DNA of 64,000 nt. Origin: a virus (Duplodnaviria; Caudoviricetes). Shown here one piece after another: positions 5,701 to 55,168 of the stretch (the stretch's first letter is position 1; each line of letters opens with the position of its first letter). The notes under the pieces were generated by a model that worked only from the letters and a program-made list of their open reading frames with translations, did no database searches and was not told the origin of the DNA. Both the position numbers and the translations under genes were made by a program. The stretch spans positions 1 through 64,000 of IMG/VR virus record IMGVR_UViG_3300017766_003100. One strand, given 5' to 3'.

Positions 5701-6264
5701 ATGAATATTATGAAAAAAAGAGACAAAAGAAGAATGGGAAGTTGTACTTGTAGTAATTGTGGGGTTGAGTTTGAAAAACCTTTAAGTGAGTTAAACCGTA
5801 ATGAAAAATTGGGTAGAAAGAATTTCTGTTCAAGGAGTTGTATAGGTCATTATAACACAGAAAGATTGTTAAATGTAAAAAATCGTTATGATATAAGTAA
5901 ACATTCTGGTAATGTTAGAGATAAATTCACAGGATTGAGAGATTTCTTAAAAAGAGTGAGAAACAGATTTAAGGAACACAATTTAGATTTGGATTATTTG
6001 AAAGAGTTGTGGGATAGTCAAAATGTTTGTGTTTATACTGGAGTTAAATTACAATTACCTAAAAATAAAGGTGTCAATAATCAAATATATACTGCATCAT
6101 TAGATAGAATTGATTCTAGTATCGGTTACATAAAAGGAAATGTTCAATTTATATCAATTGCCGCAAATCACGCAAAAAGTAATTTAAGTCACGATGAAAT
6201 GATTCTATTTTGTAATCTAATATATGAAAATAGAAAAATCCTTACCTATGGAGGTAAGGATTAA
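5701..6264 (+). CDS. Putative homing endonuclease (His-Me finger type) with N-terminal Zn ribbon
   Basis: CSNC...FCSRSC; VCVYTG; ASLDRIDSSIGYIKGNVQFISIAAN motif typical of phage free-standing endonucleases. Confidence 0.7.
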   Translation: MNIMKKRDKRRMGSCTCSNCGVEFEKPLSELNRNEKLGRKNFCSRSCIGHYNTERLLNVKNRYDISKHSGNVRDKFTGLRDFLKRVRNRFKEHNLDLDYLKELWDSQNVCVYTGVKLQLPKNKGVNNQIYTASLDRIDSSIGYIKGNVQFISIAANHAKSNLSHDEMILFCNLIYENRKILTYGGKD

Positions 6265-6268
6265 TTTG

Positions 6269-6646
6269 TGGAGGTATAGGGAGTCGAACCCTTTCCTGTC
6301 CATCTTAACTATTAAGGACTACATGTTTAGGACAACATTATTCGCAGTGTTCCGAGCTATTTGATTTTTATACACCCAAAATCAACAAAATCGGTCAATT
6401 CATTTTTAGGGATGAGAATTGATTAGACAACCCTATAGTGCTTCTGTTCCTGAGTTAACGCACCCCGACTCGAAAGTAATGACCTATTGACTAGGCTACT
6501 ACTGCTTCTTCAGCACGGATTAAACCTACTGCAGAAAGTTTGTTGATAACGTTGCCGTGTATCGTTTCAAACCAGTTTAACAGACTTAGTTTAGGTCTGA
6601 CATGCCCCGAATAACTAACAACGTCAGTCAATTCCAGATTACCCCC
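6269..6646 (-). ncRNA. ssrA: tmRNA
   Basis: 5' GGGGGTAATCTGGAATTGAC; 3' GGGTTCGACTCCCTATACCTCCA; acceptor stem GGGGGTA/TACCTCC with G3.U pair and A discriminator; P2 pairing TTAGTTAT/ATAGTTAA and GCATG/CATGT; tag frame 6556-6491 GNVINKLSAVGLIRAEEAVVA*; CCA not encoded. Confidence 0.92.
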
Positions 6647-6725: not shown

Positions 6726-8126
6726 ATGAGTCCTAAAGAATTAGCTGAACAAGAATCTGAAACAATATTTGAAAATGACAATGTTAAGTTTATTGAAGTC
6801 CTAGGTTATCAAGCTATGGAATATTATGGTTCCGAATATTTAACTCAATATTATAGAGATAAAAAGAGTAGAGGTGCTAAAGTATTTTTAGTTATTGATA
6901 AAAAAGGTGATAAAAACTATGAAATATTTGAACCAAGATATGGTCAACCTCAAATACAAGATTTTGATGGGAAAATATGGGATTTTGGTGATGTTATTAA
7001 ACATCATCCTGATATTGCATTACAAGTTATTAATCTAACAGCTAGTAATACACCTTATGGTATTTTATTTAAAATTAAAAATGGTGTTGAGGTTGATAAA
7101 TGGCAATTAAGAGATGCTGATAATTGTTTTGGTAATTTAGTTTTCAATCAAAAAAATCCTGCTAAATCAATGATTGAGTTAGTTTTTGATGAAAGTGAAT
7201 TTTTTGATTTTTTTGAGTTTGCTGAAGGTGATTGGGATAAAAAAATACTTGAAAGTTTGTTTGGTGGTAGATATGGTGGGTATGGTTATGAAATTTTTGA
7301 TAATGATTGGGTTTATTACGAATGGAAAGATGGATATATTCTACGAAATCTTAACGATGAAAATGAAAAACTTCTTGAAAAGATACTAATACAAGCATCA
7401 CCAACAATCCTTGACCTTAAAGATGAAGGTGATGACAAGTATTATTCTAGTATTGCTGAATTCTTGGGTGATAATTTTAGTAGGGAAGCTGAAAATATTA
7501 TGGATGAATATCAAGATCAATTAAATGAAGGTGCTGATAAAAGAATAAAACAATATGCAATATCGGACATTGGAGACCCATTCAGAGATTATGGTGTACT
7601 ATTAAAAGGAGAGTCCTATTTTACTAATTATGTAACTACCGCTAATATACTTTTATCACTTTATCGTATTACAAGTGTAGATAAAACCAGTTCTATAAAG
7701 GAATTATTTGAAACATTAGGTAAAGATTTAAATATTATGATTGGTAGTTATAATGAAATTGGACGTGAATCTTGGGATATTGATACGGAAACATGGAATG
7801 ATGTTGTAAAAACTAACTTGGAAAGTATATTAGAGAATATTGCGGAAAATCCTGAAAAATATGAAGGAACAAGAAAATATGGTGAAGTTCTTCAAACATT
7901 AAATAAGATGGGATATGAAATTGGAAAATTTTATAAATTACCCTATAATAAATCAGACTCTTTCAGAATAACGAATGTAAATAAAGAAAACCTAAGAATT
8001 ACTTTAGAACATTTTATTGGAAATGAAGGAACTGTAAAAAGTTATTCTTTAGAAGAATTCAACAATTTTTTAAATTCACCAGAATTATTTGAACATTTAG
8101 TTAGAAAATTGAAAAGATTATTGTAA
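6726..8126 (+). CDS. Hypothetical acidic protein, possibly virion-associated
   Basis: 466 aa; TATTTAT motif 23 nt upstream; C-terminal LFEHLVRKLKRLL. Confidence 0.75.
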   Translation: MSPKELAEQESETIFENDNVKFIEVLGYQAMEYYGSEYLTQYYRDKKSRGAKVFLVIDKKGDKNYEIFEPRYGQPQIQDFDGKIWDFGDVIKHHPDIALQVINLTASNTPYGILFKIKNGVEVDKWQLRDADNCFGNLVFNQKNPAKSMIELVFDESEFFDFFEFAEGDWDKKILESLFGGRYGGYGYEIFDNDWVYYEWKDGYILRNLNDENEKLLEKILIQASPTILDLKDEGDDKYYSSIAEFLGDNFSREAENIMDEYQDQLNEGADKRIKQYAISDIGDPFRDYGVLLKGESYFTNYVTTANILLSLYRITSVDKTSSIKELFETLGKDLNIMIGSYNEIGRESWDIDTETWNDVVKTNLESILENIAENPEKYEGTRKYGEVLQTLNKMGYEIGKFYKLPYNKSDSFRITNVNKENLRITLEHFIGNEGTVKSYSLEEFNNFLNSPELFEHLVRKLKRLL

Positions 8127-8135
8127 TATTGTGTT

Positions 8136-8954
8136 ATGAAACACGATTACAATTTATTAAAAAAGGTTTTGTCCATACCTACGAAGACATACAAAGAGGA
8201 CTTAATGATTCAATTCCTGTGTGAATGGTTAACTGAAAACAACATCCCTTATCAAGTTGATAAGATGGGTAATGTTTATGCTGCCAAACAAACGGATGAG
8301 ATTGAATATTTCCCTTGTGTTGTTGCTCATACCGACACAGTTCACGAATTGGACACAATTAACATCCGAGAAATGATGTTACCCAATGACCAAAAAGAAT
8401 TAAAACCCGCATTAAAGGCTTTTAATGATGAAGGACAACCCACTGGTATTGGTGGAGATGACAAATGTGGTGTTTATGTATGTTTGGAATTATTGAGAAG
8501 TTTACCAAATATTAAGGCCGCATTTTTTGTTTCAGAAGAAACTGGTTGTCATGGTTCAAAAGAGGCTGATAAAGATTTTTTCTCTAATGTTGGATATGTT
8601 ATACAATTTGACGCACCTGGTAATTGGATGGTGAGTGAGTATTGTATGGGAGTTAAATTGTTTGATAAAAATTCAGAATTCTTCAATAAATGTGATAAAG
8701 TATTAACTGAGGGATTCAATAATAGAAACAAATATCAATCCCATCCATATACAGATGTTTATGCGTTAAAACAACAATTTGATTTCTCTTGTATAAATTT
8801 TGCGGTAGGATATTATAACTACCATACAAAACACGAATATGTAATTGTTGAGGATGTTTTCAATACTTTAGATATTGCCAACAAAATGATTGGGGATTTG
8901 GGGTATGTTAAATACCAAGAATCTATTAAAAATAATAGAAATTACATTTTTTAA
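8136..8954 (+). CDS. Zn-dependent peptidase, M20/M28 clan
   Basis: AHTDTVH, GGDDKCG, SEETG, FDAPG and YYNYHT metal-ligand motifs. Confidence 0.85.
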   Translation: MKHDYNLLKKVLSIPTKTYKEDLMIQFLCEWLTENNIPYQVDKMGNVYAAKQTDEIEYFPCVVAHTDTVHELDTINIREMMLPNDQKELKPALKAFNDEGQPTGIGGDDKCGVYVCLELLRSLPNIKAAFFVSEETGCHGSKEADKDFFSNVGYVIQFDAPGNWMVSEYCMGVKLFDKNSEFFNKCDKVLTEGFNNRNKYQSHPYTDVYALKQQFDFSCINFAVGYYNYHTKHEYVIVEDVFNTLDIANKMIGDLGYVKYQESIKNNRNYIF

Positions 8955-9452: not shown

Positions 9453-9480
9453 AAAAAAGGGACTATTCAGTCCCTTTTTT
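9453..9480. terminator. Bidirectional terminator
   Basis: aaaaaagggact/attc/agtccctttttt between convergent genes. Confidence 0.8.
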
Positions 9481-11493
9481 CTTTTTTGATTTTTTAACTT
9501 CTTTTTCTTTAAAAACTATATTTTCATCATTGGTTGTTAGTACATAATTTTCATTCTCAACAACATTTCCATTAAGTACTTCCTCAGATATGAAATCTTC
9601 AATTTTATCTTGTATGGCTCGTTTTATTGGTCTTGCACCATATGTTTCATCAAATCCTGCTTTTGATATTAAATCATAAACAGAATCATCACAAGTTATA
9701 TTATAATTCAAACCACTTAATCTTTTAATTAGCTTTTCAATTTCAAGTTTTACGATTTGTTTAACTTCATCTTCTTTCAATGTATTGAATACAATAATCT
9801 CATCAATACGATTTAAGAATTCTGGTGCAAAAAACTTTTTAAGTTCTTTCTTGAGCATATCCCTTTTTTCTTCCTCTTCAATATAAGAATTTGAGCTAGT
9901 TTTAAATCCAACACCAGTTCCAAATTCTTGGAATTTTTTAACCCCAAGATTGGAGGTCATAATTATAATACAATTTTTAAAATTGATTTTTCTACCCAAT
10001 CCATCAGTAAGATGTCCATCATCCAATACTTGAAGTAACGTTGAAAATACATCTTTATTGGCTTTTTCAATCTCATCAAAAAGAATAACTGAATATGGTT
10101 TATTTTTAACTTGTTCAGTTAATTGTCCCCCTTCATCATAACCTACATAACCTGGAGGTGAACCAATCAATCTTGATATTGAATGTTTTTCTTGGAATTC
10201 TGACATATCAACTCGGATAAGGTTTTCTTCACTACCAAAGATTTCTTTGGCCAATTGTTTTGCTAAATATGTTTTTCCCACACCAGTTGACCCTAAGAAA
10301 ATAAATGAACCTATAGGTTTACTTGGGTCTTTAATACCAAGTCTATTTCTACGGATTGATTTGGCAATTTTTGATACTGCCTCAGATTGACCAATGACTT
10401 TGGATGATAGGTTATCAGCCAATGATGAAAGTTTATTTGTTTCATCTGAGTTCATTTTTGATACTGGTATTTTAGTCATATTAGATACAACTTCATATAC
10501 CAAATCAAATGAAATATCTTTCTTCTTGGTTAATAAATCAGACTCAAATTTTTTCTTTTCGGATTCTAATTTATCCAGTATCTTTGTTTCTTTATCTCGT
10601 AAATCTGCTGCCAATTCATAGTTTTGACTTTTAACAACTTCAATCTTTTGTTGTTTAATATCTAATGCCTGAAGTTTTAAATCTTCAATAATTTTAGGCA
10701 TTTTTATTTCCACTTGACTTCTTGCCCCAACCTCATCAATAATATCAAATGCCTTATCAGGGAACTCTCTATCTGTGATATATCTTTCTGCCAAATCAAC
10801 ACAAAGTTTTAGAATCTCATCACTATAACTTACTTTATGATAATTTTCATATTTTTCTTTAACATTAATTAAAATCTGTAAAGTTTCTTCTTTTGTAGAA
10901 GGGTCAACAATTACTTTTTGAAAACGTCTTTCTAATGCACCATCTTTTTCAAAATTCTTTCTATATTCATCCAATGTTGTCGCTCCAATACATTGTATTT
11001 CACCCCTCGCCAAAGCTGGTTTAAAAATGTTTGACGCATCCAATGAACCTGATGAATTCCCAGCACCAACTATTTGATGTATTTCATCAATGAAGAGAAT
11101 TATATTTGGGGCAGATTGTAGTTCTTCAATAATAACTTTCATTCTTTCTTCAAATTGTCCACGATATTTTGTTCCAGCAACAATTGATGTCATATCCAAG
11201 GACATAATTCTTTTATCCATTAGATTTCTTGGACATTCTCCATTCAATATTTTTAAGGCCAAACCTTCGACTATTGCAGTTTTACCACAACCAGGTTCAC
11301 CTATTATGATTGGGTTATTCTTTTTTCTTCTTGATAATATTTGGGCGATTCTTGTAATTTCTCTATCTCTACCTACCACGGGGTCTAATTTCCCTTCTTC
11401 GGCAAGTTTGATTAAATCCTTTGCGAAGTTATTTAATACTGGGGTATCACCTTTACCTTTTGTTGAGTAATCTCCATCTTTTGATTCTGTCAT
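9463..11493 (-). CDS. clpC: ClpC-like AAA+ unfoldase lacking the N-terminal Clp repeat domain
   Basis: Two NBDs (GEPGCGKT/IDEIH; GSTGVGKT/FDEIEK); UVR-type middle domain (QNYELAADLRD); VGF ClpP-docking loop; GARP. Confidence 0.9.
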   Translation of the reverse strand: MTESKDGDYSTKGKGDTPVLNNFAKDLIKLAEEGKLDPVVGRDREITRIAQILSRRKKNNPIIIGEPGCGKTAIVEGLALKILNGECPRNLMDKRIMSLDMTSIVAGTKYRGQFEERMKVIIEELQSAPNIILFIDEIHQIVGAGNSSGSLDASNIFKPALARGEIQCIGATTLDEYRKNFEKDGALERRFQKVIVDPSTKEETLQILINVKEKYENYHKVSYSDEILKLCVDLAERYITDREFPDKAFDIIDEVGARSQVEIKMPKIIEDLKLQALDIKQQKIEVVKSQNYELAADLRDKETKILDKLESEKKKFESDLLTKKKDISFDLVYEVVSNMTKIPVSKMNSDETNKLSSLADNLSSKVIGQSEAVSKIAKSIRRNRLGIKDPSKPIGSFIFLGSTGVGKTYLAKQLAKEIFGSEENLIRVDMSEFQEKHSISRLIGSPPGYVGYDEGGQLTEQVKNKPYSVILFDEIEKANKDVFSTLLQVLDDGHLTDGLGRKINFKNCIIIMTSNLGVKKFQEFGTGVGFKTSSNSYIEEEEKRDMLKKELKKFFAPEFLNRIDEIIVFNTLKEDEVKQIVKLEIEKLIKRLSGLNYNITCDDSVYDLISKAGFDETYGARPIKRAIQDKIEDFISEEVLNGNVVENENYVLTTNDENIVFKEKEVKKSKKKKGTE

Positions 11494-11547
11494 AACTTTT
11501 TTTGATTAAATATAAATTAAAAAATGGTATTTTCAACTATGTGGGTA

Positions 11548-11560
11548 TGACAAATTGTCA
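11548..11560. promoter_or_regulatory. Palindrome TGACAA-A-TTGTCA, candidate operator
   Basis: Perfect 6-bp arms in the divergent clpC / UVR intergenic region. Confidence 0.4.
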
Positions 11561-11603
11561 GTTATTAATTTTTTGAACCTGACATTATTGATTATAAATT
11601 CAA

Positions 11604-12092
11604 TTGGTATATATTTGGTATAAAATGAAGAAACATAAACTTATAAAAAAAATATTTATGAATAAGAAAGAATTTTATAAAAGATTTGAAGAAATTGTAA
11701 ACGAAATTTTTGGTGAAAATCAAAGACAATCCACATCAATGGATGGATTTTTTAAAGGATTAAATAATGAAAATTTATCTGATGAAATAAAAAAAATCAG
11801 AGATTCAGTTAGAAAAAATAACGATGGTTTTTTTACATCCATTAGTTTTATTATAAATCCAAAAGAACAAGAAGTTGGTGAAAATTCTTTAAAGGATTTA
11901 AAGAATAAATTAGAACAATGTATTAAATCTCAAGAATTTGAAGAAGCTGCAAAACTTAGAGATAGAATTAAACAAATGGAAAATAATTCATCTAAGGTTA
12001 TGGATTTGAAAAAAGAAATGGAAATTGCTATTAAGGAACAAAATTTTGAAAGAGCAATTGAAATTAGAGATGAATTAAAAAAAATTAATTAA
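11604..12092 (+). CDS. Double UVR (UvrB/UvrC coiled-coil) motif protein, McsA-like Clp adaptor candidate
   Basis: KLEQCIKSQEFEEAAKLRDRIK and EMEIAIKEQNFERAIEIRDELK; real start probably ATG 11658, downstream of TATATTTG at 11610-11617. Confidence 0.8.
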   Translation: MVYIWYKMKKHKLIKKIFMNKKEFYKRFEEIVNEIFGENQRQSTSMDGFFKGLNNENLSDEIKKIRDSVRKNNDGFFTSISFIINPKEQEVGENSLKDLKNKLEQCIKSQEFEEAAKLRDRIKQMENNSSKVMDLKKEMEIAIKEQNFERAIEIRDELKKIN

Positions 12093-12096
12093 ATTT

Positions 12097-12122
12097 GACC
12101 CCTCAATTACGAGGGGTTTTTT
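12097..12122 (+). terminator. Intrinsic terminator
   Basis: gacccctc/aattac/gaggggtt plus T-run. Confidence 0.75.
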
Positions 12123-12135
12123 AAATCAAAAAAAT

Positions 12136-12381
12136 ATGGCAATTTTAAGAGAAGAAATTAATGGTTCTAAAATTATTAATGAAATACAATCAAGTAATAT
12201 TAGAAAAACAGAATTTGATACTGAATCAAAAGAATTAGTTGTGGAATTTAACAACGGACTAAGATATTTGTATGAAAATGTACCTCATCAAGTCTATACT
12301 CAATTCAGAATGTCTGAATCCCAAGGTAAGTTTTTCAATTCCAAAATCGCTAAAACTTATCAGTACAAAAAATTGATATAA
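12136..12381 (+). CDS. KTSC domain protein
   Basis: SSNI...FD...KELVVEFNNG..Y.Y..VP..VY..F..SESQGKFFN pattern. Confidence 0.85.
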   Translation: MAILREEINGSKIINEIQSSNIRKTEFDTESKELVVEFNNGLRYLYENVPHQVYTQFRMSESQGKFFNSKIAKTYQYKKLI

Positions 12382-12384: not shown

Positions 12385-13155
12385 TTGTGGAAACACAAAT
12401 ATTTATCAATAATGGAAAGTTTAAATAAAGTAATATCAAGTTTTAATTTACAAAATACTCTCCAACCAAAAATATGGTTAGGTGAGAATCAAAAAATGAA
12501 TCCAAAAGTCAGACAGAACTTATTGGAAATAGCATATCAATTCATTGATTCTTTTGGTTTGGATGTTGTAATTGATGACATCATTGTAACAGGTTCAATC
12601 GCAAACTATAATTGGTCTGAATATTCAGATGTGGATTTACATATATTAGTAGATTATAATCAGTTCCCAAAAGAAATGAAAGATGTTTACGTTGAATATT
12701 TTGATTTAAAAAAGATAGTTTTTAATCAAAAAAGAAATTTAAAAATGTTTGGATTTGATGTTGAAGTTTTTGTTGAGGACAACGATGTTAAAGGTATTAG
12801 TGGTGGATTATATTCAATATTAAATGATGAATGGATTAAGAAACCCCAAAAAGAAAAATTCAAAGTAGAAAAGAGTGAGATTATTAAAAACGCAAAAAAA
12901 TGGATGCGTTTAATTGATAATCTAATAAAACATTTGAATGGTGAAGACATTGAAACTATTCGTAATAGTGTGAAAGTAATTAAAGATAAATTAAAGAAAT
13001 ATAGAGTTAGTGGTTTGAATAAAGGTGGTGAGTTAGGATTGGAAAATTTAGTGTTTAAAGTTTTGAGAAGAAATGGTTATATTGAAAAATTATATAATAT
13101 CCCTATGGATATTATTGATAAAAAACTTTCTTTAGATGAAAAATTAAAGAATTAA
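12385..13155 (+). CDS. Pol-beta superfamily nucleotidyltransferase
   Basis: TGSIANYNWSEYSDVDLH (GS...DxD); third acidic residue in DVEVFVE; likely start ATG 12412. Confidence 0.8.
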   Translation: MWKHKYLSIMESLNKVISSFNLQNTLQPKIWLGENQKMNPKVRQNLLEIAYQFIDSFGLDVVIDDIIVTGSIANYNWSEYSDVDLHILVDYNQFPKEMKDVYVEYFDLKKIVFNQKRNLKMFGFDVEVFVEDNDVKGISGGLYSILNDEWIKKPQKEKFKVEKSEIIKNAKKWMRLIDNLIKHLNGEDIETIRNSVKVIKDKLKKYRVSGLNKGGELGLENLVFKVLRRNGYIEKLYNIPMDIIDKKLSLDEKLKN

Positions 13156-19098: not shown

Positions 19099-21843
19099 AT
19101 GGAAGAAAATAATAAAAATTTAACAGTTTGGCAGAGGTTATCTCACGCGTTTGGTCCTAACGCATTATTAAATCAAGATTATCCAACATATAAGTTTGAT
19201 AAAAAAGAATTATTAAGAACCACGTCAAAACAAGAATATGAGAAAGAGTTACTTCAAGCTCAACAAACATTCTATTTAGCAAATCAATGGACAAAAATTG
19301 AAGGTAATTTATACACTCAAGCCGTATATTATGAACCAACAAGATTGGCATCATTTTATGATTACGAATCTATGGAATATTGTATACATGGGGATACAAA
19401 AATCGCAACACCTAACGGGTTTATCACAATCAAAGAATTGGCTGATAAGGGTAGGGATTATGAATTTATAACTTATGCTTATGACCATAACTTAAAAAAA
19501 GTTGTCCCAGCTTTAGCAAGAAATGCTCATTACACTCGTGATGAAATGACCTACAAAATTACTTTTGACGATGGGTCTCACATTATTGCAACTTGGGAAC
19601 ATCAATTTATGAAAAGAGATGGTTCGTTTGAAAGGGTTATGAATTTAAAACCTAATGACTCAATGCTGCCTTTTTATCGTAAATCATTCTATAATAATGA
19701 AAAATATAATTGGGTTTACACTTGTAATTCTGATGAAGGACACAATGGGTGGATTTCTGAACACAATCTTATTGCTGAATGGTTTTATGACACCAAAGTG
19801 AAAGAAGATGAAGAAGTTCATCATATTGATTTTAATGGTAAAAATAATTTACCAGAAAATCTACAGATTATGACTATATCAGAACATAGAGCGTATCACA
19901 CAAGATTAAATAATGAGAAACTATGGTCTAATCCTCAATATAGACAAAAAATGTCTGAGGTTGCAAAAAGAAAAGGTAAATTGGTTTGGGCTGGAAGAAG
20001 AAGTGGTAACAATAATCCAGCTTATATCAAAATAGGATGGGATAATATTATAGAAACTGCTCGTAAAATTAAAACATTAAAAGGTACTGCTAAGGAATTA
20101 AATGTTTCTTATAGAAAACTACAAAGAGATATTGTTGCAAATGGTTATAAAGACTGGAGTACATTCTTAGAAGCGTACGGTATTCAAAAATCAATATATT
20201 CAACAGCAAGAACAAAGAATGATAAACTACAATTAAATCACAAAGTTGTTTCAGTAGAACCTTATGGTATTGTACCCGTTTATGATTTAACTGTACCTGG
20301 TTACAAGAATTTCGCCACAGATTCAATATTCTCACATAACACACCCGAAATATCTGCCGCATTGGACATATATGGTGAAGAATCAACAACTGTTGATGAA
20401 GATGGTTATATGTTACAAATATATTCTGAATCAAAACGTATCAAGGGTATCTTAGCTGATTTATTCAACAATGTTTTAGATATTAATACAAACTTACCTA
20501 TGTGGACAAGAAACACTTGTAAGTATGGTGATAACTTTGTTTATTTGAAACTTGACCCTGACAAAGGAATTGTTGGTTGTATGCAATTACCAAACATTGA
20601 AATTGAACGTTTGGAACGAGGTATGCCCGCACAAGCAAGTAGACAAAATGTTGATGAACCAGCCGAAAACAAAGGTCTAAGATTCAAATGGAAAGCAAAG
20701 GATATGGAGTTTAATTCTTGGGAAATTGCTCACTTCCGTTTATTGGGTGATGATAGAAAACTTCCATATGGCACATCAATGTTAGAGAAAGCAAGGCGTA
20801 TTTGGAAACAATTATTGTTATCAGAAGATGCTATGTTAATTTATAGAACTTCACGTGCACCTGAGAGAAGGGTATTCAAAGTTTTTGTTGGTAATATGGA
20901 TGATAAGGATGTTGAAGCTTATGTACAACGTGTTGCTAACAAATTCAAACGTAGTCAAGTTGTGGACTCTCAGACAGGTAATGTGGATATGAGATTCAAT
21001 CAAATGGCGGTTGACCAAGATTATTTTATTCCTGTAAGAGACCCAGCACAAGGTAGTCCAATTGAAACATTGGCGGGTGGAACAAATTTAGGTGAAATTG
21101 CTGATATTGAATATATCCAAAAGAAATTATTAACCGCTCTTCGTGTACCAAAAGCATTCTTAGGTTTTGAAGAACCAGTTGGTGATGGTAAAAATTTATC
21201 GTTAATTGATATTCGTTTTGCAAGAACAATTAACAGAATACAAAAATCAATGGTGGCCGAATTGAATAAAATTGCCATTATACATTTGTTTTTATTGGGA
21301 TTTGAAGACGAATTAAATAATTTCACTTTAAGTCTAACTAATCCATCTAGTCAAGCTGATTTATTAAAAATTGATATTTGGAAAGAAAAAATTGCATTAT
21401 ACAAAGAATGTGTTACACCTATTGGTGGTACTGCACCAACATCAATAACTTGGGCTAAAAAACATATCTTAGGTTTCTCTGATGAAGAAATTAAAAATGA
21501 TTTACAACAACAAAGAATTGAAAAAGCTGTTGATGCTGAACTTACGAATACTGCGACAATCATAACTAAAACAGGTGTGTTTGATATGATTGATAAATTA
21601 TACACTCAAAAAAGTGGTACTACTGCAGGTGGCGGAGCTGCAACACCACCACCTCCTGGAGGAGCACCTCCACCTCCAGGTGGCGAACCAACAGGATTAC
21701 CTGAGAGTGAAAAGAAAGATAATATGAAAATATTATTAGAAAGTGATAATTTTTTAGATGAAGAAAGTTTTATTGATTTATCTAAAGCAAGAAATTACTT
21801 GGGTGAAATTGAGAAACATTTGAGTAAACTAATAGATGACTAA
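19099..21843 (+). CDS. gp20: Portal protein (T4 gp20-like) containing an intein
   Basis: PEISAALDIYGEES; KYGDNF; YGTSMLEKARRIWKQL; EDAMLIYRTSRAPERRVF; QDYFIPVR; located between terminase and protease. Confidence 0.95.
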   Translation: MEENNKNLTVWQRLSHAFGPNALLNQDYPTYKFDKKELLRTTSKQEYEKELLQAQQTFYLANQWTKIEGNLYTQAVYYEPTRLASFYDYESMEYCIHGDTKIATPNGFITIKELADKGRDYEFITYAYDHNLKKVVPALARNAHYTRDEMTYKITFDDGSHIIATWEHQFMKRDGSFERVMNLKPNDSMLPFYRKSFYNNEKYNWVYTCNSDEGHNGWISEHNLIAEWFYDTKVKEDEEVHHIDFNGKNNLPENLQIMTISEHRAYHTRLNNEKLWSNPQYRQKMSEVAKRKGKLVWAGRRSGNNNPAYIKIGWDNIIETARKIKTLKGTAKELNVSYRKLQRDIVANGYKDWSTFLEAYGIQKSIYSTARTKNDKLQLNHKVVSVEPYGIVPVYDLTVPGYKNFATDSIFSHNTPEISAALDIYGEESTTVDEDGYMLQIYSESKRIKGILADLFNNVLDINTNLPMWTRNTCKYGDNFVYLKLDPDKGIVGCMQLPNIEIERLERGMPAQASRQNVDEPAENKGLRFKWKAKDMEFNSWEIAHFRLLGDDRKLPYGTSMLEKARRIWKQLLLSEDAMLIYRTSRAPERRVFKVFVGNMDDKDVEAYVQRVANKFKRSQVVDSQTGNVDMRFNQMAVDQDYFIPVRDPAQGSPIETLAGGTNLGEIADIEYIQKKLLTALRVPKAFLGFEEPVGDGKNLSLIDIRFARTINRIQKSMVAELNKIAIIHLFLLGFEDELNNFTLSLTNPSSQADLLKIDIWKEKIALYKECVTPIGGTAPTSITWAKKHILGFSDEEIKNDLQQQRIEKAVDAELTNTATIITKTGVFDMIDKLYTQKSGTTAGGGAATPPPPGGAPPPPGGEPTGLPESEKKDNMKILLESDNFLDEESFIDLSKARNYLGEIEKHLSKLIDD
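19381..20340 (+). mobile_element. Intein (320 aa) with HNH endonuclease in the portal
   Basis: Block A CIHGDTKIATPNG after MEY; C-terminal VYDLTVPGYKNF...IFSHN followed by +1 Thr; internal EVHHIDFNGKNNLPENL. Confidence 0.93.
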
Positions 21844-21864: not shown

Positions 21865-22581
21865 ATGAAATTCGGAATTATTAAATCAAAAATAGATTAC
21901 GTTTTAACAGAATCTTTCAAAAATGAAATTCTTTTTAAGGAAGAAATGAAATATTTCAAAAAAAATATTTTGGAAAATAAAACATTGAGTAAATTGTTTT
22001 ATTTGTACGATGAATTAAGTTCAAAGAAAAATATTGATAAAAAAATTGTTGATGATTATATCAATGGTTCAATAACTATTTACGAAAATCTAATTAATAA
22101 AATTAAATCAAATGATTTAAAAAAATTAAATTATTGGTTGGATGGAATTTCAGTTGAGAATACTTACGAAAATATTGATAATGTTTTCTCAACTGACATT
22201 TTGAAACTTGAGAGTAAAATCAAAAGTAAACAAATTCTAACTGAGTCTTTAACTCAGACTGAGAAAAAACAAAATGAGGTGATTAATATCCCAGTAAGTT
22301 CAATGATTAAATTGGCTAACAAAACATTGAATAACTATTTGAATACCTTAGATGAAGGTAGTAAAAAAGAATTAGTTAAATTATTATCTGAGGATGATAA
22401 TACATTAGAACAAGAATATAACACAATAAAAGAACAAGTGATTGGAAAACTTACCAATCACCAAAAAGTATCAGACAATGAAACATCATCTAAAATAGAT
22501 GAAACCATTACAAAAATAAAAAATGAAAAATACGATAAATTGACTTTTTTCAAATTGAAGGATTTGAATGAAAATCTTTAA
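21865..22581 (+). CDS. Head-module hypothetical protein
   Basis: Between portal and protease; helical; LTE motifs. Confidence 0.75.
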   Translation: MKFGIIKSKIDYVLTESFKNEILFKEEMKYFKKNILENKTLSKLFYLYDELSSKKNIDKKIVDDYINGSITIYENLINKIKSNDLKKLNYWLDGISVENTYENIDNVFSTDILKLESKIKSKQILTESLTQTEKKQNEVINIPVSSMIKLANKTLNNYLNTLDEGSKKELVKLLSEDDNTLEQEYNTIKEQVIGKLTNHQKVSDNETSSKIDETITKIKNEKYDKLTFFKLKDLNENL

Positions 22582-22772
22582 TCGTTATCCTCTTTTTTGT
22601 ATTTTTGTACATAGATAGCTTTATTGACCTGATTTCTGTTTTTTACAGATTTCTTTGTAAACTCTTTCCTATTTTTTAATTCAGTCATCAATTTAGTTTT
22701 GATGACTTTACTTTTGAAAAGTTTTAAGGCTTTTTCAATAGGTGTTTTATTATCTACATTTACTATTAACAT
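22578..22772 (-). CDS. rpsU: 30S ribosomal protein bS21
   Basis: MLIV...IEKALKLFKSK...ELKNRKEFTKKSVKNR...KAIY matches the bS21 pattern (Bacteroidota-like start MLI). Confidence 0.88.
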   Translation of the reverse strand: MLIVNVDNKTPIEKALKLFKSKVIKTKLMTELKNRKEFTKKSVKNRNQVNKAIYVQKYKKEDND

Positions 22773-43472: not shown

Positions 43473-44276
43473 TTATTCTTCAAATTTTATGGCTCTATCA
43501 ACAATAAAAAATGATTCTTTTTTTGCTGAGTCAATCCAGAATTTAACTTCTTCTTTAGAAAGTACTTCATCACCATTTTTGTAATTCCAAAATATTGAAC
43601 CTTGTCTTTGGTTGGTATGTTTATAACCAATTCTTGGAATTGTCATTATCTTCATTGAGTTGTGTGTCAATCTTAAAAACAACTCATATCCAAATGTTAG
43701 TTTGAATGATGCTTTTAGTAATCCAAAATCAACGAATGATGATTTTTTAATAACCATACCTGAGATTTGGAAATTCTGAAAACTTTGTAATGTTTCATTT
43801 GTGAGAATTCCCATTTCACTAGAAATGTTAACAGCAAATGTTGCCTCATTTGTGAAACCTGCAAATTGTCCATTTTCGGTAACATCAACTACAATTGGTA
43901 AGAAACAATCAACATCAGGATATACTTTGGAATACTTATTTGCATTATCAAACCATATCTTTGAATACTCATCATCAAATTCAAAAATAGATACCCATTT
44001 AGATTTTGCAATTCTAACACCATGATTTACTTGTTCTGAAAAGTTTGGATTTTTTGTCCAAACAACTCTGTTTACATTTAATCCACTAAATTCATAGCTG
44101 TCTAAAAATTCAACTAAACTTGTTTCATCTGTGTGTACTATAATAAGTTCATTGATTGGTGTTTTTTGTGTAACCAATGACATAATAGCTTTATTGAAAT
44201 AATCATCAAACCAAGGGTGGGTTGTAGATTTTATAGGTAATATTACTGATACATCAAATTTTTCCATATTAATCAA
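43473..44276 (-). CDS. Glycosyltransferase, GT-A (GT2-like)
   Basis: DVSVILPI; NFSEQVNHGV; IFEFDDEY. Confidence 0.75.
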   Translation of the reverse strand: MINMEKFDVSVILPIKSTTHPWFDDYFNKAIMSLVTQKTPINELIIVHTDETSLVEFLDSYEFSGLNVNRVVWTKNPNFSEQVNHGVRIAKSKWVSIFEFDDEYSKIWFDNANKYSKVYPDVDCFLPIVVDVTENGQFAGFTNEATFAVNISSEMGILTNETLQSFQNFQISGMVIKKSSFVDFGLLKASFKLTFGYELFLRLTHNSMKIMTIPRIGYKHTNQRQGSIFWNYKNGDEVLSKEEVKFWIDSAKKESFFIVDRAIKFEE

Positions 44277-45327
44277 TTGTTTGTAATTTATTTAATTGTT
44301 CTTCAAAAGATTTTAATCTTGTTTCAAGATAACCTTCGAAATTGTTTATTACACTTTGGTTAAATGATTCAGAAGTTGGAAGTTTCTCAATGGTACTATC
44401 CATTTGAGTTAATAAATTTTCATTAATATTATCTTCCAACAAATTCTGTAAGAAATCTGCAATGTAATCTACAATTTCATTCTTATTGTTAATCCAAAGT
44501 CCATTATCTTCTGACATCCATTCAGGAATCATTCTTGGTACAGTTCCCATACAAGGTACACCACATTTCATTGATTCCAATGGGAATGTTCCATAAGAAC
44601 TAATATCATCAATCCATACTGACATAAAACATTGTTTAAGGTTAAATGCAAATTCAGATTCACTCATACCTCTCATATCTTTGAATGTAACCCATCTATA
44701 TTGTGGGAATTTTAGATAGAATTGTTTGATAATATTCAAACCTTCTCTTTGGTCTCTAGTGTGAATACCAATTATTGGATTTGCGGGTAATGTATCTTTT
44801 TTGAAGCTATTAGATATGAATGGAGGAATAACATCAATTGAAACATTCTTCATTAAACTTGAAAGGTATTCCTTTTGTTGTTCAGATGTTGTGATACATT
44901 TTAAGAAACCTAATTGATTCCAAGATTGACCTGGTTGTAATGTTTCAAGTACATAGTCATATGATTGTGACAATACAATTTTACCACAAGGAAGATTACT
45001 TATCTGACTCATAACAAAACCATATAGTTCTGGTACAACAATGAAATCTTCAGGGGAAACTTGTAGTTTTTGCCCATCAATTGATGTGTGTGGAATATTC
45101 ATAAACTCTTGGTCTAACCAAGTAGATACACCAACATAATCACTTTTTTCATGTAACATTGTTACATTATAATTTTTGTCCCATAGAGATTTAGCCATTC
45201 TATAGGTGTAAGCTATTGAAGCTTTGGCGTTACCTTTAGTATCTTGTACTAAAAAATAAATCCTTGATTTTTTCTCTTTGAGATTTTGAATTGACTTCTC
45301 AATTTTTTCTATTTGTTCTGAATTCAT
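44269..45327 (-). CDS. Glycosyltransferase, GT-B-like
   Basis: VVPELY; YGTFPLESMKCGVPCMG (ExxxxG.P motif). Confidence 0.7.
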   Translation of the reverse strand: MNSEQIEKIEKSIQNLKEKKSRIYFLVQDTKGNAKASIAYTYRMAKSLWDKNYNVTMLHEKSDYVGVSTWLDQEFMNIPHTSIDGQKLQVSPEDFIVVPELYGFVMSQISNLPCGKIVLSQSYDYVLETLQPGQSWNQLGFLKCITTSEQQKEYLSSLMKNVSIDVIPPFISNSFKKDTLPANPIIGIHTRDQREGLNIIKQFYLKFPQYRWVTFKDMRGMSESEFAFNLKQCFMSVWIDDISSYGTFPLESMKCGVPCMGTVPRMIPEWMSEDNGLWINNKNEIVDYIADFLQNLLEDNINENLLTQMDSTIEKLPTSESFNQSVINNFEGYLETRLKSFEEQLNKLQTID

Positions 45328-45328
45328 A

Positions 45329-45598
45329 TTAAAATTTGTTTAATAATTTTTTATATAGTAAAGAATTAAATGCTAATCTGAATGGTATTGATAGTTCGGT
45401 ACTTTTCATACCTAATGCCTCATCAGCTTCTTCATTTTCTACGATTAAAGTTTCAATCATCATTTTAACCATTTCATATTTTACAACACTGATATGATTC
45501 TGTGGAGCACCTGTGAAATCAGATGGTGGTTCGACATTGATGTATTTTTCAATTTGGTCAATATCGAAGTAGTAATTTTCATTTAATATTTTTAACAT
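45329..45598 (-). CDS. Hypothetical protein
   Basis: 89-aa ORF. Confidence 0.7.
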   Translation of the reverse strand: MLKILNENYYFDIDQIEKYINVEPPSDFTGAPQNHISVVKYEMVKMMIETLIVENEEADEALGMKSTELSIPFRLAFNSLLYKKLLNKF

Positions 45599-46223
45599 AA
45601 TTTTCTAATTCTTTGATATTATTTAATGTGTAATCTTTGTTTATATCCTTATTATATTCAGTTTCATACTTAATAATCACCTTTTCTTGGGGATGATTTA
45701 ATAATAGGTCAGGATTTGCCGTAAGTAAAACATCAAACTCATCCCAAATATTATTTTTTGTTGAGTTTGAATAAAAAATTATCTTTTCCAATTCACAACC
45801 AAATTTTGATAAGAAAAATAAAGTTGCGGGTTTTGACTTCCCAATTTCATCCGAGATGATTATAAAATCATTTTCATTTCTCAAATTCTTATAAATCTCA
45901 TTCAAATCATTAAATGTGAACATTTCAGTTGATGGTGCGTGACCAAACAACTCCATACAATATTCTTCATACATAAATGAATAATATTCTTCATTAGTTT
46001 GAAATGCGAAATGTTCATTTAATGTTAAACTTGTGACAGGTGATAATATCTTATATTCAAATGGTTCTGATATTGTTTCCAATTCAGTATTACCTGATAA
46101 GTCAATTGTATAAGTTTGGGATGGTATATCTTGATAACTCTCTATTAAATGTTTTTCATATAAATGTGTGAATTTACCAATAGTGTCTCTTAATACACCA
46201 TTTACATCAATAGCAATTCTCAT
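45579..46223 (-). CDS. HAD-superfamily 5'(3')-nucleotidase-like protein
   Basis: MRIAIDVNGVLRD (DxN variant of motif I); KPATLFFLSK; YNK. Confidence 0.65.
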   Translation of the reverse strand: MRIAIDVNGVLRDTIGKFTHLYEKHLIESYQDIPSQTYTIDLSGNTELETISEPFEYKILSPVTSLTLNEHFAFQTNEEYYSFMYEEYCMELFGHAPSTEMFTFNDLNEIYKNLRNENDFIIISDEIGKSKPATLFFLSKFGCELEKIIFYSNSTKNNIWDEFDVLLTANPDLLLNHPQEKVIIKYETEYNKDINKDYTLNNIKELENYVKNIK

Positions 46224-46945
46224 TCTTCGTATCTTTTTAATATTTTTCCGATTAATGGATTTCTAACCACATCTTTATTATCAAATTCAAAAACTCCAAC
46301 ATCATCTAAACCTTTGAATTTTTTGATTGCATCATACAATCCTGAGTGTGTCTTATCTTTGTATCTATCGGTCTGTTCTAAGTCACCACTGATAAAAAAT
46401 TTACTATTGAACCCAATCCTTGTCAAGAGTAATTTCATTTGATTAGGAGTCGAATTTTGAGCTTCCTCAAATATTAGAATTGAGTTATCAATGTTCATAC
46501 CTCTCATATAGGCCAATGCAAAAACTTCAATAACATCAATTTCTTTCAATTTTTCTCTAGTTTCCTTACCAATGATTTTATTCATTAAGTAATATGAGGG
46601 GAAAATATAGGGGTCTAATTTTTCTTCAACATTACCAGGTAGAGAACCTAGTTTTTCTTCAGCTTCAACAGCAGGTCTAACAATGACAATTTTTTCGTAA
46701 GGTGAAGTTGGGTCAGATAAGATATCCAATGCAGCTTTCATCGCAATATATGATTTTCCAACACCAGCGGGTCCTGAACAAATTGTTATTTGATTTTTTT
46801 TCAATAAATCATAATATAATTTTTGATTGTCAGATAAGAACTTTTCTTTGGATTTCTTTTTGATTATTTCACAAATAATTTCCTTTCTTGTTTTTTTTGG
46901 TTCCTCACTATTCTGAGGTTGTGTTGGTTTTTTTCTTGTTGCCAT
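46220..46945 (-). CDS. phoH: PhoH-like ATPase
   Basis: GPAGVGKS; RPAVEAEEKLGSLPG; AYMRG; EEAQN; GDLEQTD; VVRNPL. Confidence 0.95.
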   Translation of the reverse strand: MATRKKPTQPQNSEEPKKTRKEIICEIIKKKSKEKFLSDNQKLYYDLLKKNQITICSGPAGVGKSYIAMKAALDILSDPTSPYEKIVIVRPAVEAEEKLGSLPGNVEEKLDPYIFPSYYLMNKIIGKETREKLKEIDVIEVFALAYMRGMNIDNSILIFEEAQNSTPNQMKLLLTRIGFNSKFFISGDLEQTDRYKDKTHSGLYDAIKKFKGLDDVGVFEFDNKDVVRNPLIGKILKRYEE

Positions 46946-46972
46946 TTAATTTATATTTTTATAAAAATTAAT

Positions 46973-46980
46973 CAAATATA
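46973..46980 (-). promoter_or_regulatory. Bacteroidota -7 element upstream of phoH
   Basis: TATATTTG on the minus strand, 28 nt before ATG 46945; no canonical -33 found. Confidence 0.45.
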
Positions 46981-46999
46981 AAAAAAATCAAGAGTTACT

Positions 47000-47887
47000 T
47001 TATGTTTGAAGTTCTTTAATGAAATCACTTATTCTTTTTTCGTAAGTGTGATTATTTTTACTTTTTAAGTAACCATTGTTACTAATCAAATTTCTTTCAG
47101 TTTCATTTTCTAAATAAAACTTGATTTTATCTATCAAATCGTCTTTAGTTTCATAAACGACAATATCTTGATTAATATTGAATAATAATTCCAACCCTTC
47201 TGTATAATTTGTCACCAATAAAGTTTTACAACCTGTTGTTTCAAACGTCCTATAATTTATATCATTTGATATATTACGATTGAAATGAATTTTGTATGAG
47301 TTTATAGTTCTAACCATATCCTCACCAATAACAAAAATATCTTTTTTTATATTAAAAATATTTAGATAATTTATCCATTCACCTCTATTATTAATATTAC
47401 CACAAAAACCAACATCAATATTTTTCTCAATCTCCATCGGAGTTATTAATGTATCATCATAACAATTAGGAAACCACAAGGTATTACCACAATAGTCTTT
47501 AAAGTTAGGTAAATAAGATTTAGTTGAGTTTAATAGAAAATCTGGTTTTATTTGTTTCACCAAATTAATATGTTGGTCTAACACACAATGAGAATCTATT
47601 GACCAAAATATTTTTATTTTTTTACTATTTTTAATCTTGTCCAATGGTAACCAAGTGGGGGTATAATTTTCTAATAAAAAAATAACGTCAGCCCAACTCT
47701 CTAACAATTTGAAATCATCATTAAAATTCTGATGTCCCAAACCCCACACAATACATTCAAATCCGTTTTTTTCAAATGCTCTTTTTAATGAAAAACATTC
47801 TCTATAATTTCTATTTTTTTCGTGTCTTCCGTTTTCTTGTATGATTAAAATTTTCATATTATTTTTTCGCGTAGAAAATATTACCAA
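47000..47887 (-). CDS. Glycosyltransferase, GT-B (CgeB/Glyco_trans_1_2-like)
   Basis: DVGFCG; KIHFN...INYRTFETTGCKTLLVT; HTYEKR. Confidence 0.85.
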   Translation of the reverse strand: MVIFSTRKNNMKILIIQENGRHEKNRNYRECFSLKRAFEKNGFECIVWGLGHQNFNDDFKLLESWADVIFLLENYTPTWLPLDKIKNSKKIKIFWSIDSHCVLDQHINLVKQIKPDFLLNSTKSYLPNFKDYCGNTLWFPNCYDDTLITPMEIEKNIDVGFCGNINNRGEWINYLNIFNIKKDIFVIGEDMVRTINSYKIHFNRNISNDINYRTFETTGCKTLLVTNYTEGLELLFNINQDIVVYETKDDLIDKIKFYLENETERNLISNNGYLKSKNNHTYEKRISDFIKELQT

Positions 47888-48467
47888 TGGTTTTATGAAC
47901 TTTATGATAATTGTGATTACTCAATATATCTTCAATTACTTGTGTACTATGTTCAATACAAATTAATTTTATATTAACTTTACTGAAATCAATACCCTCA
48001 ATCACATTTTGGTCAAAATCTTCGGTGTCAATACTGACGAAATCAATGTTTGTGATATTGTATTTATTAAAAATTTCAGACGTTTTTATAACTTTAGTTG
48101 ATAAAGTTTCAAAATCACAATTATAGATAGTTTTACATTTTAACATCTGTTCATTTTTGAACGTGGAAAGTTGTTCAAATTCATCATTTTTATCAATAAA
48201 AAACTCAACATTCGTTAATGTTTCTTTTCCGCAACCAACATTTTCAATTAAAACTGATTTATTGTTATCATATAATTTTTTTAATTTTTCAAAATTACGA
48301 GGATTTGGTTCAATCAATAATCCATTCCAACCTTTCTCAATTAAGAATCTACTATTAGAATATCTTACACCATCAGCTGCACCAATATCAACAACCAATC
48401 CATTTTTATTAATATCAAAAAATTGTTCTAGAAAAATTTCCTCACCATATTGTGAATATTTAGTCAT
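47859..48467 (-). CDS. FkbM-family methyltransferase
   Basis: YSQYGEE; VDIGAADG..SNS; LLIEPN; FVSIDTEDFD. Confidence 0.9.
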   Translation of the reverse strand: MTKYSQYGEEIFLEQFFDINKNGLVVDIGAADGVRYSNSRFLIEKGWNGLLIEPNPRNFEKLKKLYDNNKSVLIENVGCGKETLTNVEFFIDKNDEFEQLSTFKNEQMLKCKTIYNCDFETLSTKVIKTSEIFNKYNITNIDFVSIDTEDFDQNVIEGIDFSKVNIKLICIEHSTQVIEDILSNHNYHKVHKTIGNIFYAKK

Positions 48468-48481
48468 TTTATCAAAATTAA

Positions 48482-49132
48482 TTAATTTATTTTTTCACAC
48501 ACAAAAACACCAATTCCATTCCACCATGTATCTTTACCGCCTTTTTCACTATATGTTTCCAAAACAAATTTTTCATGAATTATTAATCCTGACTCAGTAA
48601 TTCCTTCGTATGTTCCATTATATACTGTTGGATAACTAAAATCATCAATTATTATTATTGAATACTTTGACATTATTGGGTAATAATATGTAATTGCTTT
48701 TTTGTGAGATTCCTGAGAATGGTTTCCATCGTACATATAAATGTCAATGTCACCAATTTTTTCTTTAATGGTGTTAATGTCTAACTTGAAACAATCTGAC
48801 TCTATGAAATTTAATGGTACTTCACCACAAAATTTTTTAACATTCGAGAAAAATATATCTTTTGGTCCGTTAAATTCTGCCCAATTATCAATAACTATTG
48901 AATTAATATTGTTTTTGTATGTTGCGGAAATAAAACTAGACCCCATCCAAGTTCCTATTTCTAAATAATTAACATTATCTAAGTTACAAATATTATTGTA
49001 AAAATGTCTAGTTTTATTACCAGACATACCTTCCATATTTAATATATCATTTGTTAATTTTGATTGTTTTTTTTCAGCCAACTCAAATGAATTCTTACAA
49101 TGGTTAATTAAAAACTCTAAAGAATACTTCAT
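48482..49132 (-). CDS. Class I SAM methyltransferase (Methyltransf_24-like)
   Basis: YLEIGTWMGSS; YMYDGNH; IIDD. Confidence 0.85.
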   Translation of the reverse strand: MKYSLEFLINHCKNSFELAEKKQSKLTNDILNMEGMSGNKTRHFYNNICNLDNVNYLEIGTWMGSSFISATYKNNINSIVIDNWAEFNGPKDIFFSNVKKFCGEVPLNFIESDCFKLDINTIKEKIGDIDIYMYDGNHSQESHKKAITYYYPIMSKYSIIIIDDFSYPTVYNGTYEGITESGLIIHEKFVLETYSEKGGKDTWWNGIGVFVCEKIN

Positions 49133-49138
49133 ATTTTT

Positions 49139-49768
49139 TTATTTTTTTTTCAAATGTATTATGAGGTCTCTATGACCAGGAATCAAATTTTCCGAAACTA
49201 CTATCCACTTATCATTTAAAATAGATTCAATAGTCTTGAAATTTTGATAATAATGTCCAAAAGGTAACAAATCCCCCAAAACAAAATTTTCTGGATTAGT
49301 TATGATTTGTTTTGAAAATTCAAAATTTGCTAACATAAATACAAAATCAGAATTTGGTTTTAACACTCGATAAACATCATTAATATAATTATGAATTAAC
49401 TCATTTGATAAATGACAAAAAGCATTATAAGAGAAAACAAAATCAATCAATTCATCTGATATGTTTACACAAGAAGAATTCTGATTACCACACTCTATAA
49501 ACTCAACATCATTAAAATTTTCAAACTTTTTTGGTTTTTTTATTACATCAATTGCATATATTTTTTGGAACTTTCCTGTCATTTTTTCAGTGAAAGTTCC
49601 ACCTCCAGGTCCGATTTCCAAAGCAATCTTACTTTTATCAAAAAAAGGATATAATGCGACTTCACAGACTCTTTGAATTCCTACCCCATAGTTAAAATTA
49701 TCATAATAACCATCACCCCAAAAATTTTGGAACTCTTCCTTAGTAAAAGTTTTATTTTTTTCAAACAT
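49139..49768 (-). CDS. Class I SAM methyltransferase
   Basis: LEIGPGGG; DFVFSYNAFCH; RVLKP. Confidence 0.85.
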   Translation of the reverse strand: MFEKNKTFTKEEFQNFWGDGYYDNFNYGVGIQRVCEVALYPFFDKSKIALEIGPGGGTFTEKMTGKFQKIYAIDVIKKPKKFENFNDVEFIECGNQNSSCVNISDELIDFVFSYNAFCHLSNELIHNYINDVYRVLKPNSDFVFMLANFEFSKQIITNPENFVLGDLLPFGHYYQNFKTIESILNDKWIVVSENLIPGHRDLIIHLKKK

Positions 49769-49783
49769 ATTTTTTATTTTTTT

Positions 49784-50437
49784 TTATTTTATAAATTTCC
49801 AATATTCAGGATGTCTGATATCATTTTCATCAAAAACATCACCAACAAATTCTTTATTTATTCTTTCAGTTGGGAATTTTTTTCTTTCATAATTATAATC
49901 AAAAAATTCATCATGGATGTATGAATTATTTTTAACTATAGGATATATTTTTTCTCTTAAAAAATTTTGGTCTACTTGCCAAAAATTTCCTTTTTTATAA
50001 TCATTTATCAAAGTTTTCATATTTTTTAATATTCCATTTCTACATCCCCACATACCACCTAATATTTCTGTTGTATGGTGTGGATGGTCTCTCATAATAT
50101 GAAAATCTTTATCACTATTTAGCCATTCATCAACTGCCAATTTTTCTCTAAGATTTAATCTGCTATCAGTGTCTCTTGATAACATTATATCTGAATCATC
50201 GCAAGCTAAAAACCTCCAAAACATACCCTCCCAATTCCCATCTTCTTCCATTAAAATAACTTCAGTTGTTGATATTTTTTTTAGGGTTTCAATAATTTCG
50301 GAAGGTACACTTTTACCACAATAAAATCTTGAAGTCCAACCTAAATATATTATAGGAGTTAATTCAGCATTTTTAATTGCTCCAATTGTATATTTTGGGT
50401 TATCACCCCATAAACTAAATGATATTATTTTTTTCAT
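49784..50437 (-). CDS. Probable glycosyltransferase-like protein
   Basis: ISFSLWG..PKY..GA; WRFL; SRDTDSR (DxD); FHIMRDHP; DQNFL. Confidence 0.6.
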   Translation of the reverse strand: MKKIISFSLWGDNPKYTIGAIKNAELTPIIYLGWTSRFYCGKSVPSEIIETLKKISTTEVILMEEDGNWEGMFWRFLACDDSDIMLSRDTDSRLNLREKLAVDEWLNSDKDFHIMRDHPHHTTEILGGMWGCRNGILKNMKTLINDYKKGNFWQVDQNFLREKIYPIVKNNSYIHDEFFDYNYERKKFPTERINKEFVGDVFDENDIRHPEYWKFIK

Positions 50438-50441
50438 AAAA

Positions 50442-51074
50442 TTAATAATTCTTTAAAAAAAGTTTCCAGCCATAAATACCTAAATCAATCATTGTAAAAT
50501 CATTTTTAATAATTTTGGCAATACATTCTTCAGTTTTCTTATGATAAATTTGATTATTAAACTGAGGTAAAAAATTATGAAAACTAACACATATTTGGTC
50601 TACAGAATCAAAGTCATCAAAAGAATCAAACAAATCCCATTCAGAACCTTCTATATTTACTTTTAAAATTGATATTGATTTAATATTAAATTTAAATTTA
50701 AAATCAGACCAAGTTATTACGTCATATTCACCCATTTCATTAGGTATTATTGACCCCGCAATACCATTTGAGCTTAAATTAGCTTTACCTGTAAATGTTG
50801 ATATAAACCCTTTAAATAATTCAGAATGTTCATTTGGACTTTCTTGAGGGTCTACACCAATAACTTTCTTCTTACCAAAGAAATAACCAGCCCAATTATC
50901 ACTTGTAACTTCTTCAAAGTTTTTATTCCATCCTAAACAACCCAAGTCAACAATGCACCCATTATGTGTTTCAAATCTTGGGTGAACACGGCTCCAAATA
51001 TTTACATCTTGATTGGAGTTTACATACCAATTAGGTCTTATTTGAATTAATTCGTGTTTAATGTTGTTTTCCAT
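50442..51074 (-). CDS. FkbM-like methyltransferase
   Basis: IVDLGCLG; IGVDP; LKVNIEGSEW; QICVSFH. Confidence 0.7.
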   Translation of the reverse strand: MENNIKHELIQIRPNWYVNSNQDVNIWSRVHPRFETHNGCIVDLGCLGWNKNFEEVTSDNWAGYFFGKKKVIGVDPQESPNEHSELFKGFISTFTGKANLSSNGIAGSIIPNEMGEYDVITWSDFKFKFNIKSISILKVNIEGSEWDLFDSFDDFDSVDQICVSFHNFLPQFNNQIYHKKTEECIAKIIKNDFTMIDLGIYGWKLFLKNY

Positions 51075-51107
51075 ATTTTATTTTTTATACAAGTCTTGAA
51101 TGTTCAT

Positions 51108-51767: not shown

Positions 51768-51769
51768 TT

Positions 51770-52336: not shown

Positions 52337-52337
52337 A

Positions 52338-55164: not shown

Positions 55165-55168
55165 AGTT

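Follow-up and report, generated by a model that had tools for sequence, protein, structure and literature searches.

A ClpC without N-domain and an optional divergent double-UVR protein near a tmRNA in bS21-type jumbo phages of Bacteroidota

The locus described here lies in a stretch of 64,000 nucleotides of phage DNA (the window), which covers positions 1-64,000 of its record; genome-wide questions were put to relatives. The window is AT-rich and belongs to a bS21-type jumbo phage of Bacteroidota. Its head module, with the bS21 gene in antisense orientation, follows the gene layout of the freshwater bS21 jumbo phages, whose predicted hosts are Bacteroidota (PMC9723584). The same DNA encodes a tmRNA, a zinc peptidase, a ClpC homologue and, divergent from the latter, a small protein with two UVR motifs (Table 1). 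Further along the window we noted an intein with an HNH-type endonuclease within the portal gene (19099-21843), the portal itself being of 595 aa in most relatives. A Pol-beta-type nucleotidyltransferase gene with a SidM-N-like match (12385-13155) adjoins the KTSC gene and is core in all relatives, and a big cluster of glycosyltransferase and methyltransferase genes occupies the minus strand at 43473-56383.

Table 1. Positions of the genes, RNA and sequence elements of the locus and of the head module in the window. A strand cell is empty where none is assigned.
Feature	Position	Strand	Remarks
tmRNA	6266..6646	-	Rfam RF00023, 84.6 bits, above gathering score; G3.U pair intact, CCA not encoded
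Tag reading frame, GNVINKLSAVGLIRAEEAVVA	6491..6556	-	21 aa, open
466-aa protein	6726..8126	+	no known family; core neighbour, between tmRNA and peptidase
M28/M42/M20-type zinc peptidase	8136..8954	+	core neighbour; metal-ligand motifs kept
Terminator-like hairpin	9453..9480		where clpC and a 155-aa gene converge
ClpC without N-domain, 676 aa	9463..11493	-	AAA1, M-domain, AAA2; Pfam and alignment to S. aureus ClpC
GVGF ClpP-docking loop, aa 527-530	9904..9915	-	identical in many Bacteroidota ClpC
M-domain UVR hairpin, aa 278-304	10582..10662	-	tip Y292 = S. aureus F436
TGACA-N3-TGTCA box	11548..11560		only match in the window at no more than 1 mismatch
Second, degenerate box, 12 nt and sigma54-like TGGTAT	11580..11619	+	facing the UVR gene
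Double-UVR protein, 144 aa	11658..12092	+	two UVR motifs, E 3e-19; divergent from clpC
Terminator-like hairpin	12097..12118	+	downstream of the UVR gene
KTSC-domain protein	12136..12381	+	directly faces clpC where the UVR gene is missing
Terminase	17131		head module
Portal	19099		head module, intein-bearing; prohead protease and capsid genes also in this module
bS21 gene	22578-22772	antisense	in head module

The initial annotation of the window had described a ClpC lacking the N-domain but keeping the UVR middle domain and a VGF loop, a divergent gene with two UVR motifs, a tmRNA about 3 kb away, an M20/M28 peptidase between tmRNA and clpC, and no clpP in the window. All of these features were recovered: alignment, Pfam and motif checks agree on the ClpC architecture, both UVR motifs were detected, the tmRNA lies 2.8 kb from clpC, the intervening peptidase matches the M42, M28 and M20 families, and neither clpP nor dnaK nor hsp20 was found in the 64 kb.

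Residue 14 of the phage ClpC aligns with residue 157 of S. aureus ClpC, so that an N-domain of about 150 aa is missing, and Pfam finds no Clp_N in the protein. The Walker A and B motifs of both ATPase sites, the pore loops and the Arg fingers are present, and Pfam places a UVR match in the M-domain, whose tip reads NYELAADLRD. Among the characteristics of class I Hsp100 proteins, it has the AAA+ modules, a short UVR-type M-domain with an aromatic tip and an IGF-type loop, and lacks the Clp-repeat N-domain; judged by its sequence, the protein is a ClpC-derived variant, that is, a non-canonical ClpC. The homologues, all of about 670-690 aa, keep the short start throughout and a free-standing Clp_N gene was not found in 12 related records (3 complete), which argues against a miscalled start and led us to drop the possibility of an N-domain encoded separately. 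Phylogenetic trees placed the phage ClpC within or sister to the ClpC of Bacteroidota, whose loop it matches and which has the same M-domain tip. Both the tip and the ClpP loop are conserved in all phage lineages.

In some relatives clpC is interrupted. The gene is broken at the first Walker A by an apparent natural split intein in L009 (6141-9857), L007 (5214-9865) and L008, and probably also in L055-L057, L072, L101 and L129; the N-part is very short (~24 aa) and a free-standing 393-aa endonuclease-like gene separates the halves. In L007 and L008 the second Walker A is interrupted in the same way, and their ClpC would be trans-spliced from three pieces. The longer or extra upstream ORFs of L007 and L009, considered as a source of a restored N-domain, are pieces of this split intein.

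The double-UVR protein starts at ATG 11658, which gives the length of 144 aa seen in homologues, and not at TTG 11604, which overlaps the promoter element. It consists of an aromatic N-terminal arm, a short beta hairpin and two UVR hairpins on one long helix. In the AlphaFold model (pLDDT 70, pTM 0.34) the hairpins are confident and the N-terminal half poor, and the two UVR tips sit at opposite ends of the helix. Both tips retain the FE..xxxRD pattern used for M-domain contacts, and the motifs are no nearer to those of ClpC than to those of McsA or UvrB. The family is viral, with 195 representatives at E<=1e-10: the Atlas search returned viral UVR clusters only and no match to the N-terminal half, and no full-length match was found in 61 Bacteroidota genomes, nor any Foldseek hit to the model at E<=0.001. 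Complex prediction of the protein with ClpC residues 190-345 scored 0.27, against a mark of 0.32, a value that we count neither for nor against binding. Known adaptor identities were discarded. The McsA match is confined to the UVR motifs (37 bits versus a cut-off of 210) and the conserved Cys pairs are absent; for MecA, there is no family match and the partner ClpC lacks the N-domain. To the eye the aromatic arm resembles Hsp20; as for homology of the N-terminal half, hhalign gave a probability of 2.3% for an alpha-crystallin domain, and the candidate was rejected.

Genes were counted in 80 loci retrieved through clpC. Those for the peptidase, the 466-aa protein and the KTSC-domain protein are nearly always present, and the tmRNA was found in 63 loci, including all 36 of at least 16 kb, the misses being short contigs. 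The UVR gene occurs in 30 of the loci and is absent from 50, and neither it nor clpP was found in three complete genomes. In a partly redundant set of 87 UVR-gene loci with upstream DNA, the gene faces a headless clpC in every case, down to about 30% identity, and it was never seen away from clpC. In the ClpC tree it is present in the basal lineages, with about five changes of state. Thus the co-occurrence in relatives expected by the initial annotation was borne out, and of the proposed unfoldase-adaptor pair the linkage stands, but the pairing is not obligatory. Moreover, since relatives share the gene order over the entire stretch from tmRNA to terminase, linkage of the UVR gene to clpC is on its own a weak argument. 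In one lineage (L071/74/75) an Hsp20 gene fills the UVR slot; Hsp20 does not partner with ClpC, so a stress gene of an unrelated kind can occupy this position. Lineages without any UVR gene retain ClpC, its tip unchanged, and there ClpC must hence work without the UVR protein; a tip mutation compensating for the loss was rejected, the tip being identical with and without the UVR gene. The UVR protein is accordingly best read as an optional, presumably stress-induced regulator of the M-domain and not as a required adaptor.

Stress induction is suggested by the spacer between the two genes. In relatives the TGACA-N3-TGTCA box is often doubled and followed, after 11-13 nt (mostly 12), by a sigma54-type TGG[CT]A[CT]. 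Of 69 distinct spacers with a UVR or Hsp20 gene, 62 contain the box, whereas none of the 34 empty spacers does; these counts rest on about five independent losses, and some empty loci have also lost most of the spacer. The full element points at the UVR or Hsp20 gene 26 times and at clpC twice, and by this orientation the promoter element appears to be that of the UVR gene, not of clpC. Compared with a sigma54 promoter (-24 TGGCAC, -12 TTGC), its -24 part and the 12-nt spacing from the box are conserved in relatives; the -12 part is canonical in some, one base off consensus in the window and degenerate in the closest relatives. Matches to sigma70 promoters were at chance level. The same element precedes the phage dnaK in three complete genomes. 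In host genomes, sigma54-type sites were found before dnaK (22/30) and hsp20 (18/30), and before clpC in 3/29, with 2/29 in the control set; sigma54 enrichment of chaperone genes has been described in Bacteroidota (PMC12316311). The strict pattern of box plus sigma54 site had no match in 41 host genomes, and among 30 dnaK or hsp20 regions of hosts no more than 4-5 show the box itself. Given that the element accompanies the UVR or Hsp20 gene and is similar to heat-shock promoters of hosts, the UVR gene probably belongs among the heat-shock genes, and it looks interchangeable with Hsp20. In G004 (L396:1500) and G003 (L397:1500) the box alone also precedes a phage gene for a sigma70-type factor, at a distance of about 240-270 bp; in G003 it falls inside the upstream ORF.

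As for the protease, two UVR-bearing relatives (G007, G008) encode a ClpP with catalytic motifs, 21-27 kb from the locus. No clpP was found in 38 further records, most of them partial, the complete genomes searched being UVR-less ones and the UVR-bearing records partial. Furthermore, three unrelated huge phages (LR745206, LR756502 and LR756508) combine a headless ClpC with clpP-family genes and have no double-UVR gene, so that clpP goes with a headless ClpC in five phage records; the tmRNA is missing in two of the three. Trees put two of these three ClpCs apart from the bS21 clade and favour an independent loss of the N-domain in the other huge phages, with a single origin of headless ClpC not rejected by the AU test (p=0.076).

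The tmRNA was missed by ARAGORN in the window and found with Rfam. The phage tags measure 21-22 aa, with an xVA end in 41 of the 43 distinct tags, whereas all 31 host tags are of 8-10 aa and end in AA, a pattern of short AA tags that the phage tmRNA does not follow. The C-terminal AA of the tag matters for ClpX. In the phage tag codons, second positions are least variable and pN (0.22) is well below pS (0.62), which is consistent with selection on the tag peptide, RNA structure being a further constraint. Two complete genomes (L411, L412) carry their own smpB. Presence or absence of the UVR gene makes no difference to the tag, hence the UVR protein is not a dedicated tag reader. A gene with Endonuclease VII/HNH-like matches (5701-6264), found in some relatives only and possibly a mobile endonuclease, terminates on the opposite strand, 2 bp away from the tmRNA 3' end.

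A laboratory mutant offers the closest comparison. S. aureus ClpC without N-domain binds ClpP, yet contacts between M-domain tips block proteolysis, and breaking these contacts leads to strong degradation of SsrA-tagged protein and to toxicity (PMC12583610, PMC5699869). The phage ClpC has the same domain content and an intact tip, and in the S. aureus form the pore reads the SsrA tag once the contacts are broken; in contrast to it, the phage protein is natural, phage-encoded and of Bacteroidota origin. In the explanation we prefer, with a probability of about 0.45, the phage ClpC drives ClpP without adaptors, selecting substrates at its pore, and the UVR protein is produced under stress and targets the M-domain tips of this motor, most likely so as to release it. 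The phage family would have taken up a Bacteroidota clpC and then dropped the N-domain, a step documented by the alignments. To judge from the S. aureus mutants, this loss would remove the docking site of host adaptors and leave the choice of substrate to the pore. The hexamer would dock ClpP through the GVGF loop, normally that of the host and in some lineages one encoded by the phage, and the intact tip should still restrain it through tip-to-tip contacts. The UVR gene would be an optional stress module on a host-type sigma54 heat-shock promoter common to phage dnaK and hsp20; its hairpins most likely bind the M-domain tips and lift the restraint, and the aromatic arm may bring damaged proteins. 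The motor would probably act on misfolded proteins and on products that bear the long tag of the phage tmRNA, the link to the tag being the weakest step. The two huge phages with a headless ClpC and no tmRNA count against this explanation, and the persistence of ClpC with the same tip where the UVR gene is missing makes it less safe to carry over the S. aureus repression model. With regard to the initial annotation, a pathway of the phage's own ClpC with ClpP is backed by the host-like loop and by phage clpP genes beside headless ClpCs, while capture of ClpP itself is what we infer; freedom from host adaptors stands in so far as a ClpC that has lost the N-domain would escape N-domain adaptors such as MecA (PMC5699869), and nothing points to the suggested defence proteins as substrates.

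A more elaborate possibility, which we regard as doubtful, is a private route of tagging and destruction. Here the tmRNA, together with a phage SmpB in some genomes, would add a long xVA tag poorly read by host ClpXP; the pore of the phage ClpC would read it and feed ClpP, while the heat-shock tandem-UVR protein would cap the M-domain tips and unlock the motor, the N-domain having been lost more than once in huge phages. Such a route would be the natural counterpart of the engineered delta-N F436A state.

The opposite effect of the UVR protein, namely a brake, seems unlikely. By cross-linking M-domains, whether of the phage or of the host ClpC, its tips would create inactive assemblies and so shield phage proteins from proteolysis under stress. 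A long helix with a tip at either end lends itself to bridging, cross-linked M-domains are the known off state, the host ClpC has the same tip, and a holdase such as Hsp20 can stand in for the UVR gene. Nevertheless, heat-shock induction more often raises Clp activity, and the strict linkage to the phage clpC would be unexplained if the host ClpC were the only target. Just as improbable in our view is that the UVR gene occupies a heat-shock slot as a stress passenger, whose product binds itself, host UvrB or UvrC, or DUF151-UVR proteins, its adjacency to clpC being inherited gene order. The synteny of the entire block, a promoter that belongs to the UVR gene, the dispensability of the gene and the single-UVR DUF151-type proteins of hosts would all fit; however, the gene was never found away from clpC across deep divergence, both tips keep the pattern of M-domain contacts, and a chaperone-type promoter suits proteostasis better than DNA repair. 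Least probable is that the headless ClpC serves late head assembly, chiefly as a chaperone or remodeller working without ClpP, and has nothing to do with tmRNA tagging: clpC does lie just upstream of the terminase, portal and capsid genes in a region expressed late in bS21 phages (PMC9723584), and three complete genomes have no clpP, but the ClpP loop is conserved in every lineage and clpP accompanies headless ClpC in the five records mentioned above.

The proposed action of the UVR protein on the M-domain tips recalls known systems, each with differences. Like MecA and McsA-McsB, the UVR protein is a small partner proposed to act at the M-domain. MecA requires the ClpC N-domain (PMC5699869), and McsA has one UVR motif (8wtb), whereas the phage protein has two, lacks the zinc-finger half and is optional. 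Phage SPO1 encodes Gp53, an adaptor of B. subtilis ClpCP that modulates it for progeny production (PMC6873191); Gp53 acts on the full-length host ClpC, while here the phage brings its own headless ClpC and a tmRNA. A Clp protease, chaperones and an SsrA-binding protein have been listed for bS21 jumbo phages, and we did not encounter the lack of the N-domain, the UVR gene or the tmRNA in the main text of that work or in the supplements consulted (PMC9723584). A description of the headless ClpC/double-UVR unit was not found in the literature. The Bacteroidota sigma54 heat-shock regulon has the same TGG[CT]A[CT]-type site before chaperone genes (PMC12316311), and its use by the phage is probable; in the phages TGACA-N3-TGTCA would be the site of a putative activator.

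Laboratory mutants of ClpC without N-domain are known, and a single M-domain residue decides whether they are inert or toxic; a large conserved natural family makes the control of a headless motor an answerable question. If the preferred explanation is true, the phage plugs a virus-only gene into the sigma54 heat-shock circuit of its host, and products of ribosome rescue are possibly rerouted away from host proteases; all parts are small and suited to in vitro work. The family also bears on whether UVR-only proteins regulate ClpC through the M-domain, as proposed for plastid Clp. The UVR-motif proteins ClpF, UVR1-3 and EXECUTER around plastid ClpC, and likewise DUF151-UVR proteins, offer a further comparison. 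There, as here, UVR motifs are proposed as M-domain regulators, but those proteins are built differently and act with a full-length ClpC. The huge phage LR745206 (L422), which carries two clpP genes, was also seen to encode a 202-aa DUF151-like protein of host type with a single UVR motif.
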